From NCBI GenBank assembly GCA_903825315.1, contig CAIKAD010000001.1, positions 265,483-329,482 on the forward strand: 64,000 nt of DNA, written 5' to 3'. The notes below the pieces were generated by a model. The model searched no databases, was not told the origin of the DNA, and saw only the letters and a list, made by a program, of their open reading frames with translations. The DNA is from an uncultured Candidatus Peregrinibacteria bacterium. GTDB taxonomy: Bacteria > Patescibacteriota > Gracilibacteria > Peribacterales > Peribacteraceae. Positions 5,524-55,125 of the stretch are shown one piece after another; within the stretch, counting starts at the first letter, position 1; each line of letters opens with the position of its first letter. The position numbers and the translations under genes are program-made.

Positions 5524-5586
5524 ATTTGTTTGATTTGATTATAACATAAAATGAAGTGTATTGCAATATTTGGAGTCGATCGGACA

Positions 5587-6042
5587 AATGATCAATTACC
5601 AATGAGCAATGATCAATACTGGTGCGATTGCTTGGTATGGTTAGTGGTCTTGTTAATGATTGCTTGGAATATTTTGACGAGTTCATTGCTTTCTTCGAAT
5701 AGAGAGACTCTTTCCGGTTCAAGTACGGACGGCGTTGTTGGCTTGAGGAGGGAGAACCAATATGCGCTTTCACGCGCCTCTTTGCGACAGATCTTTATCC
5801 TATAGATGAAATCATCTCTGCTCACCGCTTCTGTGGCTTCGAGACTATTTGCGCCAACGGAGCCAGTGGATTTCCAGAGCTGTCTGCAATCAGTGGAAGA
5901 AAGGGAATTTTTAGGATAGCGCTTGAGGAATTCCCGTGAGAGCAAAGCATATTGCATCGTTCTTTCTGCCAAATTGTATGGCTTTGGGTTTAGCTTCATC
6001 TTTGGTGCGTCTTTGATCATTGATACTTGAGAATTGGTCATT
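5587..6042. mobile_element. Putative element: four-helix-bundle gene between 31-bp imperfect inverted arms
   Basis: Left arm aatgatcaattaccaatgagcaatgatcaat (5587-5617); right arm 6012-6042 reverse-complements to aatgaccaattctcaagtatcaatgatcaaa; mobility is inferred. Confidence 0.55.
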
Positions 6043-6053
6043 CCTTTAGCCAT
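5613..6053 (-). CDS. Four-helix-bundle protein (23S rRNA intervening-sequence protein family)
   Basis: YNLAERT...QLWKSTGSVGANSLEATEAVSRDDFIYRIKICRKEARESAYW...ESNELVKIF; lower GC than neighbours. Confidence 0.9.
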   Translation of the reverse strand: MAKGMTNSQVSMIKDAPKMKLNPKPYNLAERTMQYALLSREFLKRYPKNSLSSTDCRQLWKSTGSVGANSLEATEAVSRDDFIYRIKICRKEARESAYWFSLLKPTTPSVLEPERVSLFEESNELVKIFQAIINKTTNHTKQSHQY

Positions 6054-6466
6054 AACAAAAAATCCTCCTCTGTCGGCAAAATCGAGAGAAAATGTGTCAA
6101 AACCTTTAGCAGGGTCACCCTCTCACGCTCCGTCAGCTCTACCGTTCGCAACGGGAACTTGCTCGTCAACAATTCCAATGTCCCGCACACGCGGCAGAAA
6201 TCCGCTAGATGTGGATGGAGTTCGTTGCGCGCGATCATTCCCTTGATATTGAGAGGGAACACTGCCTCGCCGTGGAATGGCGTGAAGAGCGATGGGAGAG
6301 GCTCCGGGCACCGGCGGATGAGGGAGAGAGCGGGACGGCTCTCGCGCAGGGCGTCCACGAGGAAGAGGAGGAAGATCTTCACTTCTTCCCGGGCGAAGGT
6401 CCGCCGGAAGGCGGAAGAGAGGTGGTCTCTGAGGAGGGTATCCGGCTCTTGCGGGCGGGTGGCCAT
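6038..6466 (-). CDS. Hypothetical protein
   Basis: 142-aa ORF in the same orientation as neighbours; no recognised motif. Confidence 0.55.
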   Translation of the reverse strand: MATRPQEPDTLLRDHLSSAFRRTFAREEVKIFLLFLVDALRESRPALSLIRRCPEPLPSLFTPFHGEAVFPLNIKGMIARNELHPHLADFCRVCGTLELLTSKFPLRTVELTERERVTLLKVLTHFLSILPTEEDFLLWLKE

Positions 6467-8342: not shown

Positions 8343-8421
8343 GAGGATGCAGAAGAATCAGAGAAACAGAAGGATGAAATCCTCTGCATCCTTTGCATCT
8401 TCTGGTTCTTCTGTATCTTCA
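8343..8421. repeat. 9-mer periodic inverted repeat (GATGCAGAA family)
   Basis: gaggatgcagaagaatcagag ... cctctgcatcctttgcatcttctggttcttctgtatcttc. Confidence 0.75.
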
Positions 8422-9301: not shown

Positions 9302-9386
9302 ATGACCAATGAACAAGTATGCAATGACCAAAACGCTTCGTCCACCTGACCGTTTTTGGTTATTGGGATTTTGACAATTGGTCATT
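9302..9386. repeat. Gene-less copy of the AATGACCAA inverted-repeat element
   Basis: atgaccaatgaacaagtatgcaatgaccaaa ... tttggttattgggattttgacaattggtcatt. Confidence 0.75.
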
Positions 9387-9984
9387 ATCTTTTCTTCATC
9401 ACCAAATACACCTCTCTGCTCCGGTCACGGCTGGCCTGCACCTTGGTCGCGCGGACATCACGCCAGTGGCCTGCGGTCTTGATATCGCGCAGGAGCTCGT
9501 CAAAGTCTCCGCCGCGGAATACTTTGATCACACAGAAGCCGTCCTTTTTGAGATGTCGGGTTGCGACGGCGAGGACGGCATGCGCGAGTTCCACGGATCG
9601 CCACTGATCCACGTCCTTCACGCCGCTCGTGGAGGGGGCAATGTCCGAAAGGACGAGGTCCACGTACCCTACCTCCTCTTCCTCCAGCATGGTTTCAATC
9701 TTCGCGTCATTGGTAATGTCGAAGCGGTGGACGGACACGTTGGGCGCCACTTCATCAATCGCCTGCAGGTCCACACCAATCACTTTTCCCTGTCGGCCGA
9801 CTGCCTTGGAGGCGTACTGAAGCCAGCTGCCCGGCGCGGCGCCGAGGTCGAGCACCATCATGCCCGGGTGCAACAACGTAAAGCGCTCATCGAGTTCCAT
9901 GAGCTTGTAGACGGAGCGAGCACGATAGCCTTCGGCTGCGGCTTTCCGGCTCCAGTTGTCGTTGGGGGTGTAGCGCTTGGGCAT
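9385..9984 (-). CDS. rlmE: 23S rRNA Um2552 methyltransferase RlmE
   Basis: GYRARSVYKL, DLGAAPGSW, LSDIAP, ASRDRSREVY. Confidence 0.95.
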   Translation of the reverse strand: MPKRYTPNDNWSRKAAAEGYRARSVYKLMELDERFTLLHPGMMVLDLGAAPGSWLQYASKAVGRQGKVIGVDLQAIDEVAPNVSVHRFDITNDAKIETMLEEEEVGYVDLVLSDIAPSTSGVKDVDQWRSVELAHAVLAVATRHLKKDGFCVIKVFRGGDFDELLRDIKTAGHWRDVRATKVQASRDRSREVYLVMKKR

Positions 9985-9986
9985 GG

Positions 9987-10106
9987 GGAGGATGCAGAGG
10001 AATCAGAAGATGCAGAAGAATCAGAGGAATGAAATAGTACATCTTCCGTACCGGTATGTTACCACTCCTCTGATTCTTCTGAGACCTCTACATCTTCTGC
10101 ATCCTC
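9987..10106. repeat. 9-mer periodic inverted repeat (GATGCAGAA family)
   Basis: gaggatgcagaggaatcagaagatgcagaagaatcagagga ... tcctctgattcttctgagacctctacatcttctgcatcctc. Confidence 0.8.
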
Positions 10107-21676: not shown

Positions 21677-21680
21677 ATTA

Positions 21681-21792
21681 AGGATGCAGAGGAAACAGAA
21701 GATGCAGAAGAAGCAGAAGAGAAACTGCTCAATGAGTTCTTGAGCGACAGTTCCTCTGCATCCTCTGAAACCTCTGCATCTTCTGTATCCTT
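21681..21792. repeat. 9-mer periodic inverted repeat (GATGCAGAA family)
   Basis: aggatgcagaggaaacagaagatgcagaaga ... tcctctgcatcctctgaaacctctgcatcttctgtatcct. Confidence 0.8.
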
Positions 21793-21830: not shown

Positions 21831-22823
21831 ATGCCCCGAGCCAAAGTTGCCATTCTCTACGTTGGCGGGTCCATCGGAATGGTTGTGAACAACAAGACGG
21901 GACGCATTGAGCCGATGGAGTCGCTCAGCCTTATCCATCGCGCTATTCCGGAGATGCAGCGCGAGGTGTCGCTGCAGTTCTATTCATTGGAGAACATCGG
22001 GTCGTCGGAAGTGACGCCGGAGCACTGGGTGGATATTGCGGAGAAGATCCGGGAGATCTACAACCACTTCGACGGCTTTGTAGTGATCCACGGGACCAAC
22101 ACCATGTCCTACACGGCGGCGGCGCTCAGTTTTGCGCTGCAGAACCTTAGCAAGCCCGTGGTGTGTACCGGAGCGCTTTTGCCCATCAACGAACTCGCGG
22201 GCGACGGCCGCATGAATCTCATCTTTGCCATCCGCGCGGCCCAATTGGACCTTGCCGAGGTGTGCGTCAGCTTGGGGCCCAAAGTACTCCGTGGCACGCG
22301 CGCCAAGAAGGTGGAGGATTCGCTCATGCAGACGTTCGATAGTCCGCGCTTTCCCGCATTGGCGGACTTTAGTACCGGTGTGCACCTGCATCCGTGGCGG
22401 CTGGTGCGGCGCAAGCGCACACTCCTTTGCCGGCCGACGTTCGATACCAATGTTATTGTGGTCACGCTCACGCCGGGTATTTCCGATGCCTATCTCCATG
22501 CCGTCCTCGCTGCCAAACCGCACGGCATCGTCCTGCGCGCCTACGGGCCCGGCATGCTGCCGGAGCGGCTCTTCCCGTGGCTGCGGGAGGTTAAACATGC
22601 CGGCATTCCCGTGGTGATCATCTCGCAAACCTTGCGCGGAGCGATTGATCTCCACCGCTTCCGCAAGCAGCTCACCTTGGAGGAATTGGGCATCATCTCC
22701 GGCAAAAACATGAGCTTCGAATGCGCTACTGCCAAACTGATGTGGGCCTTGAAACAGGCGAAGACACCATTGCGTTTGAGGGAATTGATGGAGAGGAGTT
22801 TGGTGGGGGAGCTGGATGAATGA
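21831..22823 (+). CDS. ansA: Type I L-asparaginase family protein
   Basis: ILYVGGSIGM (canonical TGGTI), GFVVIHGTNTMSYTA, KPVVCTG. Confidence 0.85.
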   Translation: MPRAKVAILYVGGSIGMVVNNKTGRIEPMESLSLIHRAIPEMQREVSLQFYSLENIGSSEVTPEHWVDIAEKIREIYNHFDGFVVIHGTNTMSYTAAALSFALQNLSKPVVCTGALLPINELAGDGRMNLIFAIRAAQLDLAEVCVSLGPKVLRGTRAKKVEDSLMQTFDSPRFPALADFSTGVHLHPWRLVRRKRTLLCRPTFDTNVIVVTLTPGISDAYLHAVLAAKPHGIVLRAYGPGMLPERLFPWLREVKHAGIPVVIISQTLRGAIDLHRFRKQLTLEELGIISGKNMSFECATAKLMWALKQAKTPLRLRELMERSLVGELDE

Positions 22824-22947
22824 ACCAATTCTTCAAAATCCTCAATGACCCTCCTTCGTCCGCCTCGGTGGACTACGGATGGGCAGGCCAAAGACGAACT
22901 TCGGTCGAGGCGTTTTGGTTTTTTGGAACATTGGTTCATTGGTCATT
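22819..22947. repeat. Gene-less AATGACCAA inverted-repeat element with nested REP-like insert
   Basis: caatgacc[ctccttcgtccgcctcggtggactacggatgggcagg]ccaaa ... ttggttcattggtcatt. Confidence 0.65.
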
Positions 22948-23113
22948 TCTCGGATTCATCATCTTCCTCCTCCCGTTCCCTCTCTTTGTTTTCGAGCAGC
23001 TTGGCACCGATAATGGAGGTGATGGCGCCGCCGATCACAAGGCCTACCACAACACGCCGGGCAAGATGCCCTTTCTTCTTGTCCTCTTTTTCATGGCGGC
23101 GGAAAGGCCACAT
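22943..23113 (-). CDS. 56-aa single-TM small protein (below ORF-track cut-off)
   Basis: MWPFRRHEKEDKKKGHLARRVVVGLVIGGAITSIIGAKLLENKEREREEEDDESEK; TACAAT 8 nt upstream. Confidence 0.65.
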   Translation of the reverse strand: MWPFRRHEKEDKKKGHLARRVVVGLVIGGAITSIIGAKLLENKEREREEEDDESEK

Positions 23114-23169: not shown

Positions 23170-23242
23170 AATGATCAATTCTCCAACATCCCAATGACCA
23201 AAGATGATCCACAACAGGGATGTATTTTGATCATTGGTCATT
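23170..23242. repeat. Gene-less AATGACCAA inverted-repeat element
   Basis: aatgatcaattctccaacatcccaatgaccaaa ... ttttgatcattggtcatt. Confidence 0.7.
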
Positions 23243-26423: not shown

Positions 26424-26518
26424 GGGAATAACGGAATAATAGAATAAGCGAGTAACAGGGGGCAGAGCGCAGGACTTTCTCCTGTTATTCCGTTATTCTC
26501 TTATTCTGTTACTCCTCC
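26424..26518. repeat. 8-mer periodic inverted repeat
   Basis: ggaataacggaataatagaataagcgagtaacagg ... cctgttattccgttattctcttattctgttactcc. Confidence 0.75.
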
Positions 26519-30105: not shown

Positions 30106-30792
30106 ATGCCCGCCTCCCACGTTCTCCTGGAAAAAGCCATTGGCGTCCGGTTCCGCAAGAAAGATCTGCTTCTGCAATCGCTCACGCACAGGTCTGCCGT
30201 GCGGGAAGCGGGAAGGCATGGGCATAACGAGCGATTGGAGTTTCTCGGCGATGCCGTGCTGGAAATGGCGACCACGGAGTATCTGTTCAACTTGTCGGGA
30301 CGCCCCGAGGGGGAGCTGACCAATTGGCGCTCCGCGCTTGTCCAGGGAGATCACCTGGCCGAAGTTGCCAAGTCCCTCAAGCTGGGTGAGTACCTCTTCA
30401 TGAGCCGTGGAGAAGAGGCGAGCGACGGGCGTAACAAGGTTTCCACGCTCGCCAACGCGCTTGAGGCGCTCATCGGTGCCATCCATCTTGACCGCGGCTA
30501 CGAAGCGGCACGTCTCTTCTGCGAGCGCTTCATCCTTACGGACCTGCAGAAGCTTCTTTCACAGGGCAGGCATCGGGACGAGAAGAGTATGTTCCAGGAA
30601 ATGGCACAGGAGAAGCATGGCATCACGCCGCACTATGAGGTGCTGGAGGAAGTAGGCCCGGACCACGAGAAGATCTTCACGAGTGCTGTTTTCATCGACA
30701 AGGAGAAGATCGCCGAAGGCAAAGGCAATTCCAAGCAGAAGGCGGAGCAGGCGGCAGCGAAAGCGGCTCTAAAAGTGAAAGGCTGGAAATAG
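30106..30792 (+). CDS. rnc: Ribonuclease III
   Basis: HNERLEFLGDAVLE, dsRBD GPDHEKIF...GKGNSKQKAEQAAA. Confidence 0.97.
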   Translation: MPASHVLLEKAIGVRFRKKDLLLQSLTHRSAVREAGRHGHNERLEFLGDAVLEMATTEYLFNLSGRPEGELTNWRSALVQGDHLAEVAKSLKLGEYLFMSRGEEASDGRNKVSTLANALEALIGAIHLDRGYEAARLFCERFILTDLQKLLSQGRHRDEKSMFQEMAQEKHGITPHYEVLEEVGPDHEKIFTSAVFIDKEKIAEGKGNSKQKAEQAAAKAALKVKGWK

Positions 30793-31506: not shown

Positions 31507-31587
31507 ATTATTGGAATATGGGAATATTGGATTATTGAGGTGCTTATGGATCCCAATAGTCCAATACTCTTTGTTACTCGAATATTC
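31507..31587. repeat. 8-mer periodic inverted repeat (GAATATTG)
   Basis: attattggaatatgggaatattggattattg ... cccaatagtccaatactc...gaatattc. Confidence 0.7.
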
Positions 31588-34409: not shown

Positions 34410-34470
34410 GGGACATCCCAGTATAGCGCCGTATTGGTACGGGTGGTAGTAATTCATCTATCTTTGAATG

Positions 34471-34566
34471 TTTTTCGTTTCTCGACCATTTCTCGTTTCT
34501 CGATGAGCAGAAAATTGCTCGATTCTTGAAATCGAAAAACGAAAAACGAGACAGAGTCGAAAAACA
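34471..34566. repeat. 7-mer periodic inverted repeat (TTTCTCG)
   Basis: ttttcgtttctcgaccatttctcgtttctcg ... tcgaaaaacgaaaaacgagacagagtcgaaaaac. Confidence 0.75.
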
Positions 34567-34567
34567 A

Positions 34568-36502
34568 TCACTCGGCTAGCATCCCCTGGCTCTGCAACTC
34601 CACCATCTCCTTATATATGGGACATGTCTTCATCAGCTCCTCATGCGGCGCAAAAGCGATGAGCCGCCCCTTGTCGAGCACGGCGATGCGGTCAACGGTT
34701 CGAACGGTCGAGAGGCGGTGCGCAATAATCACAGCTGTCCGTCCCGTCACTAATTCTTTGATGCCTTCCTGAACCTTGCGCTCTGTCACGGAGTCCAACG
34801 CGCTTGTGGCTTCGTCGAGGATCACGATCGTGGGGTTCTTGAGGATTGCCCGCGCGATGGCGATGCGCTGGCGCTGGCCGCCCGAGAGGCGGATACCGCG
34901 GTCACCGATAAATGTCTTGTATCCTTCCGGGAGCGCCTCGATGAACTCCGCGGCCGCAGCCCGCCGCGCAGCATCCCGAACCTCCGCATCGGTAGCATTC
35001 CGCCGCGCGTAGCGGATGTTTTCTTCAATTGTGTCGTTGAACATGATGTTCTCCTGGAGCACCAGGCCGATCTGGCTGCGCCACCAGAAGAGGTCGAGCG
35101 TGCGGATATCCGTTCCGTCCACCGTGATGTGGCCGTGCGTCACGTCATAGAAGCGGTTGAGGAGCATGGCAATGGTGGTCTTGCCAGCGCCGGAGTGGCC
35201 CACGAACGCAATGTGCTCCCCTGGCCGGATGTTGAGCGTGATGTCGTGGAGAATCTCGCCGTCGTGCCGGGGCTTTTCATTGTTCATCACTTCGCGGACC
35301 GATTCGCGGCTTATGAGCGCGTCGGTGAGCGCTTCTTTGTCGTACGCTTCCGTCGTCCCGATCGGATTCACGGCCAACATGCCTTCTTCCTCCGCGGAAG
35401 GTTGCAACGCGGGGGACGGTGCGGGCTCCTTCGATTCTTTCCGTTCCGTCGCATGCACGAGCGGTGCGTAGTTGAAACATGTTCCCTCCAGGCGGATTTC
35501 TCCGCGCACGTCCGGAAGGATCACCGGATGAACCGTGTTCGCAATGAGCACGGGCGTATCCAGAATGTCCTGCGACATTTTCACTTTGCCCACTTTGCGG
35601 TTCCACTGCGGCAACACGTTGGCGAGGATCTCGAACGGCGTTAGCACGCGGAAGAAGGAGAATTGGAAGAAGTACAGACCGCCGAGCGTGAGGCGGTCAT
35701 GGATGAATAACAGGATTCCCACGCCCACGAGCAGGAGACGCGTGAGCATGAAGAAGTTCATCGCCTCGATAAACGCCCACTGGCGGTTTACGCGCTGCTG
35801 TTTGCGGTGCGCACGCACGCCCGATTTCTCCATGAGTTGCTGTTCATGCCTCTCCTGCGCGCCGGATTTGACCGAGAGGATGTTCGTCACGGCATCAAAG
35901 GCGCGGCCCACGGCTTCCACCCAGATCTTGTTCACGTCGTGCTGCAGCTTGGACGTGCGTTTTACACCCACCACCACAATGCCGGTGTAGAGGAGGAGCG
36001 AAAAAATGAGAATGCCCGCGAGGAGCGGCTGAATGAGGAAGCTGATGACGAGAAAAGCCGTGGCGGAGAGCAGCGAAGGCCCCAGTTCCACCATAAGCGT
36101 CCTCTGGAGGTCGAGCAGGTTATCTGCGCCTTCGTCGAGCACTTTGACCGTCTCACCGGCTTTTTGCGATGTGTGGTAGGCGACGTCGAGATGGAGAGCA
36201 TGCGCGTATACGTTCTCGCGGCGCCAGATGTAGAGGCGGTTGTCCGTTTCCCACGAGAAATACTTTTCAATGCCATCCGTAATGGAGATGACGATAAAGA
36301 GCCCGATCCACAACCCGAAGAGCCACGGCAAACTGATAGCAGCGCCATCTTTGATTTTGAGCAGCTGATCGATCGCAAAGCTGGAGTACAGCGGTTCCGC
36401 TACCCAGAGCCCCGCAAGGAGAAGGTGCAGGGTTACGGCGATGGACGTGAGGACCGGCTCACGTTTTGCCTGCTGCCAGAGAAGTTTGAGAATCAACCGC
36501 AC
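34568..36502 (-). CDS. ABC exporter, fused permease/ATPase (MsbA-like) with ~60-aa insertion before Walker A
   Basis: GHSGAGKTT, LSGGQRQR, ILDEATSALD, IAHRLST. Confidence 0.93.
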   Translation of the reverse strand: MRLILKLLWQQAKREPVLTSIAVTLHLLLAGLWVAEPLYSSFAIDQLLKIKDGAAISLPWLFGLWIGLFIVISITDGIEKYFSWETDNRLYIWRRENVYAHALHLDVAYHTSQKAGETVKVLDEGADNLLDLQRTLMVELGPSLLSATAFLVISFLIQPLLAGILIFSLLLYTGIVVVGVKRTSKLQHDVNKIWVEAVGRAFDAVTNILSVKSGAQERHEQQLMEKSGVRAHRKQQRVNRQWAFIEAMNFFMLTRLLLVGVGILLFIHDRLTLGGLYFFQFSFFRVLTPFEILANVLPQWNRKVGKVKMSQDILDTPVLIANTVHPVILPDVRGEIRLEGTCFNYAPLVHATERKESKEPAPSPALQPSAEEEGMLAVNPIGTTEAYDKEALTDALISRESVREVMNNEKPRHDGEILHDITLNIRPGEHIAFVGHSGAGKTTIAMLLNRFYDVTHGHITVDGTDIRTLDLFWWRSQIGLVLQENIMFNDTIEENIRYARRNATDAEVRDAARRAAAAEFIEALPEGYKTFIGDRGIRLSGGQRQRIAIARAILKNPTIVILDEATSALDSVTERKVQEGIKELVTGRTAVIIAHRLSTVRTVDRIAVLDKGRLIAFAPHEELMKTCPIYKEMVELQSQGMLAE

Positions 36503-52728: not shown

Positions 52729-52846
52729 GGAATCCGAAGAATCCAAGGAAACCGAAGAAACCGAAGTGCGGAAAACTATAGAGTGTCGTAGCAGGGAAGA
52801 GTCATCCCCTCGGATTCCTTGGATTCATCGGTTTCTTCGGTTTCTT
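52729..52846. repeat. 9-mer periodic inverted repeat (GAAACCGAA family)
   Basis: gaatccgaagaatccaaggaaaccgaagaaaccga ... tcggattccttggattcatcggtttcttcggtttc. Confidence 0.8.
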
Positions 52847-53459: not shown

Positions 53460-53495
53460 GAGGGTATGGTAGCAGGTTTTGTGTGTTGTTTGTTT

Positions 53496-53636
53496 CGCCC
53501 TCACCCCTACCCCCTCTCCCAGGAGGAGAGGGGAATGTTTTGTATTTGTTTTCGCGGAAATCTGGCTTCCCAGCAGACATACAACCAACAGAAACATCTC
53601 CTTCCCCCGCTGGGGGAAGGGTTAGGGATGAGGGCG
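53496..53636. repeat. Gene-less copy of the paired CCCTCACCC palindrome element
   Basis: cgccctcacccctaccccctctcccaggaggagagggg ... ccttcccccgctgggggaagggttagggatgagggcg. Confidence 0.8.
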
Positions 53637-53653
53637 GACAAACAGAAACAAAA

Positions 53654-55028: not shown

Positions 55029-55125
55029 AATGACTAATGATCAATTATCAATGACCAAATCGCTTCGACCGCCGGATCGTATTGATCATTGAACATTGAC
55101 ATTTGATCATTCGTTTTGGTCATTT
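55029..55125. repeat. Gene-less AATGACCAA inverted-repeat element
   Basis: aatgactaatgatcaattatcaatgaccaaa ... attgatcattgaacattgacatttgatcatt. Confidence 0.75.

Follow-up and report, generated by a model that had tools for sequence, protein, structure and literature searches.

What is a small gene for a four-helix-bundle (FHB) protein doing between two inverted arms of short tandem repeats, and why do the same arms recur nearby with no gene inside them? The question is posed by positions 5587-6042 of a stretch of 64,000 nucleotides (the window) from an uncultured Candidatus Peregrinibacteria bacterium. The source genome (label G000) has 1.29 Mb in 5 contigs with 55.7% GC and is 99.6% complete; the window is C1:265483-329482. 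The observation is confirmed and general: the cassette has the known architecture of the intervening sequence (IVS) of rRNA genes, here in a non-rRNA setting. It belongs to a compact, polar class of cassettes with gene-less relatives and quick turnover, which occurs together with the FHB family. We describe its architecture and its enrichment around FHB genes across phyla, the arm units that are specific to each paralog, the lineage-specific expansion of the hairpins, the filled, empty and absent states of one junction and the co-occurrence of hairpins and FHB genes.

The filled cassette at 5587-6042

A repeat search places two inverted arms at 5587-5616 and 6013-6042, which are 30 nt long, ungapped and 80% complementary, with 396 nt between them. 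A sequence-only reading of the window had described ungapped inverted arms of 31 bp; the ungapped inversion stands and the length is corrected to 30 nt. On the coding (minus) strand the upstream arm (6013-6042) is composed of the four tandem heptamers AATGACC, AATTCTC, AAGTATC and AATGATC followed by AA, and it holds the likely start codon. The downstream arm (5587-5616) is the inverted copy of the upstream arm and pairs with it in RNA folds. Each arm is thus a run of tandem AATGAYC-like heptamers and not a plain palindrome. The filled cassette measures 456 bp and encloses a minus-strand FHB open reading frame (ORF) of 142 amino acids (5613-6041), whose TGA stop codon (5613-5615) lies within the downstream arm.

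The enclosed ORF matches TIGR02436, 'four helix bundle protein', with an E-value of 3.8e-13 and 49.6 bits against a cut-off of 24, which bears out the family assignment made in the earlier reading. It is the weakest TIGR02436 match among the seven paralogs of the genome, and its match to Pfam PF05635 is under the gathering score (29.1 vs 33.8). In an alignment of ten sequences (A1, the window FHB protein and nine relatives), the invariant residues Q40, S47, N51, E54 and E77 correspond to the conserved S..N..E core. The profile built from these ten sequences matches the structures PDB 2RLD (1.4e-30) and 2GSC (7.8e-26), both with five chains.

The TGA stop (6038-6040) of an upstream 142-amino-acid ORF overlaps the ATG (6041-6039) that opens the longer FHB frame, MTNSQ..., and an alternative start at 5999 would give a protein of 128 amino acids. 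Because the longer frame is open and the ortholog in the relative G006 likewise begins with MTNSQ within its own arm, the start codon of the window gene probably lies inside the arm. The neighbours of the cassette are this 142-amino-acid ORF on one side and a PHP-domain gene on the other. There is no rRNA gene at the cassette and no Rfam match in the locus. None of the seven FHB loci of the source genome has an rRNA gene, and Rfam searches gave no matches at E-values up to 1 in eight FHB loci and only a tRNA in seven more. Immediately inside both arms, at 5620-5626 and 6003-6009, stands the 7-nt direct repeat TGGTGCG, which reads CGCACCA on the coding strand; repeats of this kind are not clearly enriched in other elements.

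Inverted arms around FHB genes in this and other genomes

The inverted-repeat (IR) score is that of a local alignment between the upstream flank and the reverse-complemented downstream flank, and the threshold of 26 is the score of the weakest case in the source genome. All seven TIGR02436 genes of the source genome are bracketed by inverted arms (IR scores 37, 35, 41, 31, 35, 26 and 30), compared to 18 of 1500 random 320-bp windows of the same genome that reach 26 (1.2%) and three that reach 30. Each of the seven genes has its own arm sequence, which is a run of tandem 7-, 8- or 9-nt units; the units include GAGGATGCA, GAGGAAACC, GAGTAACA, ATTGTTAC, CGTTTYT, AAGCACC and AATGAYC. The start and stop codons of the genes adjoin the arms. 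For five of the six other arm types, motif matches are found elsewhere in the genome as close plus/minus pairs. In the same genus, all three FHB loci from two genomes have an IR score of at least 26. The FHB relative in G006, 57% identical to the window protein, has AATGACC-type arms in a different genomic context, and FHB proteins that are 49-58% identical share the unit period and have similar units.

A scan of species representatives covered 80 loci of one close subfamily (alignment A2), which come from Desulfobacterota, Planctomycetota, Bacteroidota, Omnitrophota, Nitrospirota, several candidate-phyla lineages and one archaeon. Out of the 76 loci with enough flanking sequence, 64 reach an IR score of 26 (median 40), compared to 13 of 276 shifted control windows of these loci (4.7%; median 18). 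Controls from the same loci were used because A/T-rich repetitive flanks raise the background alignment scores. Enrichment of inverted arms around family members had been named beforehand as a test of the sequence-only reading, and it is found both in the source genome and in the many-phyla set.

The wider FHB family was covered by the paralogs of G000, G068, G004 and G017 and by plasmid loci. In Flavobacterium cellulosilyticum 12 of 14 FHB loci have an IR score of at least 26, the remaining two score 25 and 22, and the unit differs at each locus. Six of the seven FHB loci in the samples of G004 and G017 reach the threshold as well. Inverted heptamer or octamer arms (AGGGTGT, TAGGGAG, GGTGACA, GGAGTCA and others) flank 8 of 10 FHB loci on cyanobacterial plasmids, and both exceptions adjoin transposase genes and retain the downstream array only. 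These exceptions are two copies of one FHB protein on the plasmids gamma (L145) and alpha (L146) of Nostoc sp. PCC 7120; they lie beside ISL3 or other transposase genes, have kept a downstream CTCTGCC array, lack the upstream arm and look truncated. Taken together, 99 of 116 FHB loci have IR arms (one locus common to two sets is counted once) versus 1-5% in the controls.

The FHB family is present in 29 of 41 related small genomes (0.7-1.9 Mb) and in 27 plasmid records. The gene counts among the 41 relatives range from 0 to 24, and the highest number of TIGR02436 matches, 24, is found in G016, a 1.1 Mb genome of the same family. Three plasmid cassettes lie within operons: one is positioned between nrdB and nrdA on the opposite strand (L141, Nostoc edaphicum), one between cas6 and cas4 (L144, Anabaena sp. 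90) and one between cmr2 and cmr3 (L148, Picosynechococcus).

The general anatomy was derived from the 64 arm-bearing loci of the many-phyla set. The whole element has a median length of 475 bp and the arm of 53.5 nt, with a median gap of 13 nt between the upstream arm and the protein match and of 11.5 nt between stop codon and downstream arm. In 63 of the 64 loci the coding strand of the upstream arm is rich in A. In 31 of 51 elements the order of the unit variants is mirrored between the two arms (median z 3.0 compared to shuffles of the unit order). Thus the arms are true inverted copies of each other, which is more than two arrays of the same unit.

Gene-less hairpins

The motif AATGATCAAT, with at most one mismatch, occurs 18 times in the window versus 4.2 expected, and none of 100 shuffles reaches 18. 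The matches cluster at 9302-9386, 22819-22947, 23170-23242 and 55029-55125, the four sites where the sequence-only reading had recognised the arms of the filled cassette, and each of the four folds as a long imperfect hairpin. The fold of 9302-9386 has -29.4 kcal/mol (z -4.5 on the plus strand), that of 55029-55125 has -26.2 kcal/mol (z -2.3) and that of 22819-22947, which has a longer structured loop, has -47 kcal/mol (z -3.5), and 23170-23242 folds weakly better than its shuffles (z -1.8 and -0.9). The earlier description of arms around only about 20-45 bp does not hold for 22819-22947, where the structured loop takes up about 60 nt. The shared inner flanks, CAAAGACG and CGTWTTG, are indeed common to the filled copy and the gene-less hairpins.

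Within the window, the stop codons of three ORFs that neighbour the hairpins or the cassette fall in hairpin ends; one of these is the TAA of the minus-strand ORF 9385-9984, which overlaps the end of the 9302-9386 hairpin. Every AATGAYC unit contains a TGA, and with a period of 7 an array of such heptamers would offer a stop codon in every frame. A 56-amino-acid ORF on the minus strand (22943-23113) sits exactly between two complete gene-less hairpins and has its stop codon in the arm of 22819-22947.

In the whole genome, exact AATGAYCAA matches form 43 clusters with at least two matches (manual count). Both orientations occur within 250 bp in 32 of these clusters, which are complete gene-less hairpins of about 70-130 bp; nine clusters are one-sided for the exact motif and two are the arms of the filled copy. 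The loops of the AATGAYC hairpins are of at least two types and are found in both orientations. A generic scan of the genome detected 292 hairpins, of which about 70 have periodic arms with many different unit types. Relative to the neighbouring genes, 25 of 54 periodic hairpins lie between tandem genes, 10 between convergent and 9 between divergent ones, and 10 are 'intragenic'; with these crude ORF calls for the source genome, no orientation bias relative to genes is clear against the background. Two abundant hairpin families of the genome use 9-nt units, a multiple of three, and some arrays may be translated as acidic repeats. We also attempted to assign one FHB gene to each hairpin family by single-linkage clustering on shared 6-mers and then by unit consensus; the clustering merged distinct families, no clean count resulted and the statistical argument was dropped.

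Co-occurrence of periodic hairpins with FHB genes

The pipeline for periodic-arm hairpins and its thresholds were fixed on the source genome and then used on eight related genomes. Periodic-arm hairpins are found in all four FHB-bearing genomes (6-71) and in none of the four FHB-less relatives. The source genome has 71 of them with seven FHB genes (1289 kb sampled), G004 has 38 with four FHB genes and G017 has 35 with eight (400 kb sampled from each), and G039 has 6 with seven FHB genes (333 kb). The count is 0 in 396 kb of G008, 380 kb of G027, 400 kb of G014 and 270 kb of G022. Ordinary hairpins are similar in number across all eight genomes (68-292).

Filled, empty and absent sites

The hairpin families expand within single lineages. 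CAATGAYCAAAACG, with at most one mismatch, has 44 matches in the source genome, compared to 0-6 in each of 40 genomes of the family and 0-2 in each of a further five members of the genus. A second search pattern is found 17 times in the source genome versus 0 in four genus members. At the junction of the window cassette, which runs from an ACT-domain gene to the PHP gene (the ACT-PHP junction), G006 has a 228-bp spacer with neither cassette nor hairpin, G001 has a different small ORF and no cassette, and G004 has another upstream gene. In G007, an ortholog of the 142-amino-acid ORF is followed by (TGAGTAT)x8, which runs into the end of the contig.

One Flavobacterium gene pair is adjacent in 12 genomes. 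One of them has a 549-bp FHB cassette between the two genes, three have a gene-less heptamer-armed hairpin of 92-107 bp, one has another hairpin and seven have spacers of 22-57 bp. The comparison of orthologous junctions, proposed with the sequence-only reading, thus yields filled, empty and absent states at this one junction.

A search of sequencing runs found no RNA run with the locus and two DNA runs, which are possible source samples. Contigs from these two DNA runs contained no joint that skips the element, and these contigs break at the arms or at other hairpins. A gene-less hairpin in the spacer upstream of a 366-amino-acid gene (L125, G082:C12) has AAACCCTA on both sides; in this single case the two flanks are a possible target-site duplication.

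RNA or DNA level and candidate machinery

The minimum free energy (MFE) and centroid RNA folds of the filled element both pair the arms and so close the ORF, and an RNase III is encoded in the window at about 30160-30546. Over 82 elements, the arms have 3148 paired positions, 577 mismatches and 262 gaps. The sequence-only reading had left two mechanisms side by side, an intervening sequence at the mRNA level and a MITE-like system with an unknown mobiliser (MITEs are miniature transposable elements with inverted repeats). The MITE-like system is the best fit. The mRNA intervening sequence cut by RNase III, though possible, gained no support, as the mismatches of the arms have no excess of G:U on the sense strand.

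No recognisable transposase or reverse transcriptase that could copy the element was found in the source genome. This includes the Y1 transposase (IS200-like, RAYT-type, Pfam: PF01797), for which control genomes gave matches, and the reverse transcriptase (Pfam: PF00078).

Comparison with known systems

Statements on published work refer to the available part of each cited paper. The closest known systems are the IVSs of 23S and 16S rRNA genes in Leptospira, Coxiella and the candidate phyla radiation (CPR), in which an FHB/S23p ORF likewise lies within stem-forming terminal inverted repeats. In Coxiella the terminal stem has 28 bp, and the first repeat is where RNase III cleaves (PMC4990558). 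Two to three tandem GACAGAT heptamers and a degenerate one lie upstream of the S23p start in the Coxiella IVS, so that tandem heptamers directly precede the start codon there too (PMC4990558). The sizes are also comparable, with 456 bp here, a median of 475 bp in the 64 loci and 428-444 nt in Coxiella. The rRNA insertions of the CPR include the FHB family, and short ORF-less forms occur at the same rRNA sites (10.1101/2024.02.27.582315). The hypothesis that the IVS ORF is a mobility component is traced to Ralph and McClelland (PMC4990558). Unlike the rRNA IVSs, the window copy lies between protein genes and has dozens of gene-less copies, and RNase III excision would apply to it by analogy. 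Genes of 23S_rRNA_IVP have been noticed between cas genes (PMC3936711), and the domain is listed among CRISPR-linked domains (PMC10910872).

The gene-less hairpins resemble the tandem heptamer and octamer repeats known from several bacteria, which have at least 4-5 tandem units of 7-8 nt, often as convergent pairs that can form hairpins, and which are intergenic and lineage-specific. STRR hairpins of 7-bp repeats lie between cyanobacterial genes (PMC2670836). Arrays of this kind form the arms in 8 of the 10 FHB loci on cyanobacterial plasmids. The AATGAYC family corresponds to them in having two inverted arrays of 7-nt units that form hairpins and are dispersed between genes; the name STRR and its classical units are cyanobacterial. 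In Xanthomonas there are about 70 convergent pairs of GGGAATC arrays and in Nostoc GGGGAYT arrays, for which a potential function has yet to be established (PMC4692102). In Geobacter metallireducens, 24, 21 and 8 opposite-strand pairs of four octanucleotide or five heptanucleotide repeats were read as regulator sites (PMC2700814). In contrast to our reading, the available parts of these papers assign the repeats to G-quadruplex formation, regulator sites or stability elements. FHB and S23 genes are not mentioned in the available text of the STRR, Xanthomonas and Geobacter papers, the supplementary gene tables not being covered. Our literature search, with subscription journals and supplementary files outside its coverage, turned up no paper connecting FHB/S23p genes outside rRNA to flanking tandem-repeat arms.

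The REPIN-RAYT system is comparable in its hairpin-forming short repeats with tens of copies, its single-copy gene flanked by inverted repeats and its lineage-specific families. It differs in that the flanked gene is here no Y1/HUH transposase and the arms are tandem 7-9-mers instead of REP palindromes. As in pairs of MITEs and insertion sequences, one gene-carrying copy has the same ends as the short copies that lack a gene, and the insertions are polymorphic between relatives. Unlike in these pairs, the cargo is a 14-16 kDa helical protein without DDE, serine or tyrosine recombinase features, FHB is the only enclosed gene, and the ends of the copies show no target-site duplication to the eye.

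The attenuation proteins TRAP and HutP form rings that bind RNA and read short tandem repeats. A ring with one unit per subunit would similarly explain arrays of 4-6 units with a fixed period of 7-9 nt; the folds of TRAP and HutP are unrelated to FHB, whose binding we infer. Avd, of the diversity-generating retroelements, is a pentameric ring that works with nucleic acid. It has a homologous fold and belongs to a homologous family, with PF05635 resembling Avd (PMC10053308). Unlike a diversity-generating retroelement, the source genome has no reverse transcriptase and the element no pair of template and variable repeats.

Interpretation and alternative explanations

In our judgement the cassette at 5587-6042 is probably a non-rRNA form of the ORF-bearing rRNA IVS, namely a selfish cassette with non-autonomous hairpin derivatives. 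Such a cassette consists of an FHB gene between two inverted arrays, each with about 4-8 units of 7-9 nt in tandem, and is sited here between protein genes; the short gene-less hairpins with the same arms would be its non-autonomous derivatives. By analogy with the homopentameric rings of solved relatives, the FHB pentamer may be the reader of the repeat units, roughly one per subunit. The protein could then act in trans and let its own hairpin family persist or spread; that it is also the mobiliser is something we infer. The arms may pair in transcripts, where RNase III may excise the insert as it does in rRNA IVSs.

Several observations weigh against the selfish cassette. By eye, no target-site duplication is visible at the ends of about 40 AATGAYC copies, and direct repeats of at least 7 nt just inside the arms occur in 13 of 71 cases versus about 8.5% in shuffles, which is a mild excess. 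No catalytic activity is known for the FHB fold. At least five hairpin unit types of the source genome have no resident FHB gene, and the arm families blur under clustering, so that no clean demonstration of 'one gene per family' was obtained. The eight genomes compared for co-occurrence are related and not independent, and the same pattern would be expected from co-transfer of genes and hairpins. An FHB gene of G006 has AATGACC-type arms, and this genome yields at most one match to either hairpin-family pattern, thus the FHB gene is not sufficient for a hairpin family. On the RNA side, the whole filled element folds no better than its shuffles (z -0.09) and the arms pair at only about 79% of positions. 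Among the mismatches of the 82 elements, 119 are of the sense-strand G:U type and 108 of the A:C type (p 0.51), which is no excess, and selection on a stem in the sense RNA is therefore not visible.

The main rival explanation, which we consider unlikely, shares the inferred binding with the selfish cassette and takes the whole as a regulon. Each FHB paralog would be a sequence-specific DNA- or RNA-binding regulator, the hairpins would be its operators and its own arms would serve autoregulation. It agrees with arms that are specific to each paralog and have copies elsewhere in the genome, with the co-occurrence of hairpins and FHB genes and with the start codon situated in the arm, and it is near to the interpretation of the Geobacter metallireducens repeat arrays as 'global regulator binding sites' (PMC2700814). 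Tandem, convergent and divergent gene pairs all have hairpins between them, which also suits operators, but even within the genus neither the positions nor the families of the hairpins are conserved, and one junction can be filled, empty or absent. Neither would a regulator be expected from cassettes that sit inside cas, cmr and nrd operons in one or the other orientation, from the in-frame stops in some FHB matches or from the same type of cassette in rRNA genes (PMC4990558). A rather less probable explanation confines the effect to RNA-level insulation, with arms that only form a stem cleavable by RNase III, an FHB protein that does not recognise them and gene-less hairpins that are decayed cassettes or ordinary RNA-stability elements. 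The closure of the ORF by the arms in both predicted folds, the RNase III gene in the window, the stop and start codons located in the arms and the RNase III excision demonstrated for rRNA IVSs (PMC4990558) speak for such insulation. Its difficulties are the missing G:U excess and the imperfect pairing (about 79%) with many transversion mismatches and gaps, and it leaves the tandem 7-9-mer arms, the units that follow the paralog and the absence of the hairpins from FHB-less genomes unexplained.

Independent origins of hairpins and genes appear improbable to us. Slippage-prone tandem-repeat hairpins would arise via host replication, and FHB genes would merely insert or survive there. Active slippage is indicated by perfect runs such as (TGAGTAT)x8 in G007, the number of repeats differs among Coxiella strains (PMC4990558), and orphan hairpin types without an FHB gene fit this explanation too. 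However, four FHB-less relatives of similar GC and size have no periodic hairpins, each FHB gene has its own unit and not the commonest one, and the order of the arms is mirrored. Chance resemblance of low-complexity flanks has a negligible probability. A/T-biased repetitive arms do inflate local alignment scores, but the random-window and shifted-window controls, with 1.2% and 4.7% at the threshold versus 85% of the FHB loci, refute it, and the motif count of 18 versus 4.2 expected argues in the same direction.

As a tentative generalisation of the selfish cassette, which we regard as possible and somewhat short of probable, FHB proteins would be ring-shaped, programmable readers of 7-9-nt units. 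They would be the only element-encoded factor of a widespread class of mobile hairpins that needs no known transposase or reverse transcriptase. Members of the class would be the rRNA IVSs, the STRRs, the Xanthomonas GGGAATC pairs and the Geobacter 'regulator sites', and each family would be propagated or protected by its cognate FHB paralog.

The ORF of the rRNA IVS and the tandem heptamers of cyanobacteria, Xanthomonas and Geobacter have been without an explanation for decades, and across many phyla the family carries no annotation beyond 'four helix bundle protein'. Should these be parts of one system, each becomes testable, such as the binding of a protein to its own unit and the movement or decay of hairpins when the gene is supplied or removed. 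If one unit is read per subunit, the family would offer a natural set of proteins with differing specificities for short sequences. The insertion of cassettes between cas genes (cas6/cas4, cmr2/cmr3) may explain why the FHB family is scored as 'CRISPR-associated', and periodic hairpins explain assembly breaks in small metagenomic genomes.

Neighbouring genes and further hairpins of the window

The 142-amino-acid ORF next to the cassette (6041-6466, minus strand) has no Pfam match, and its stop codon overlaps the FHB start (ATGA). Its ortholog in G007 is 66% identical, weaker orthologs were found in G005, G002 and G003, and none was found in G001, G004 and G006. With orthologs in only some relatives, it is therefore also a variable gene at the ACT-PHP junction. 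Between the cassette and the start of the PHP gene, the minus strand has a promoter-like site (5538-5566, TTGCAA-17-TATAAT with TG), which places the cassette upstream of the likely promoter of that gene.

The window has seven more hairpins whose periodic arms belong to other unit types, at 8343-8420, 9988-10106, 21680-21792, 26425-26515, 31522-31569, 34465-34570 and 52730-52835. The units of these seven hairpins are GATGCAGAG-, GAGTAACA-, GGAATATTG-, CGTTTYT- and GAAACCGAG-like. Contigs of the source assembly break or are mis-joined at two of them, 9988-10106 and 21680-21792.

At least four copies of another kind of palindromic element, about 130-160 bp long (CCGCCCTCACCCC...GGGGTGAGGGCGG, with GGGGGAAGGGG hairpins inside), are present in the genome. 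One is located in the window at 53487-53644 and the others at C1:64804-64949, C1:121297-121451 and C2:273989-274118. This element is not composed of tandem 7-9-mers.

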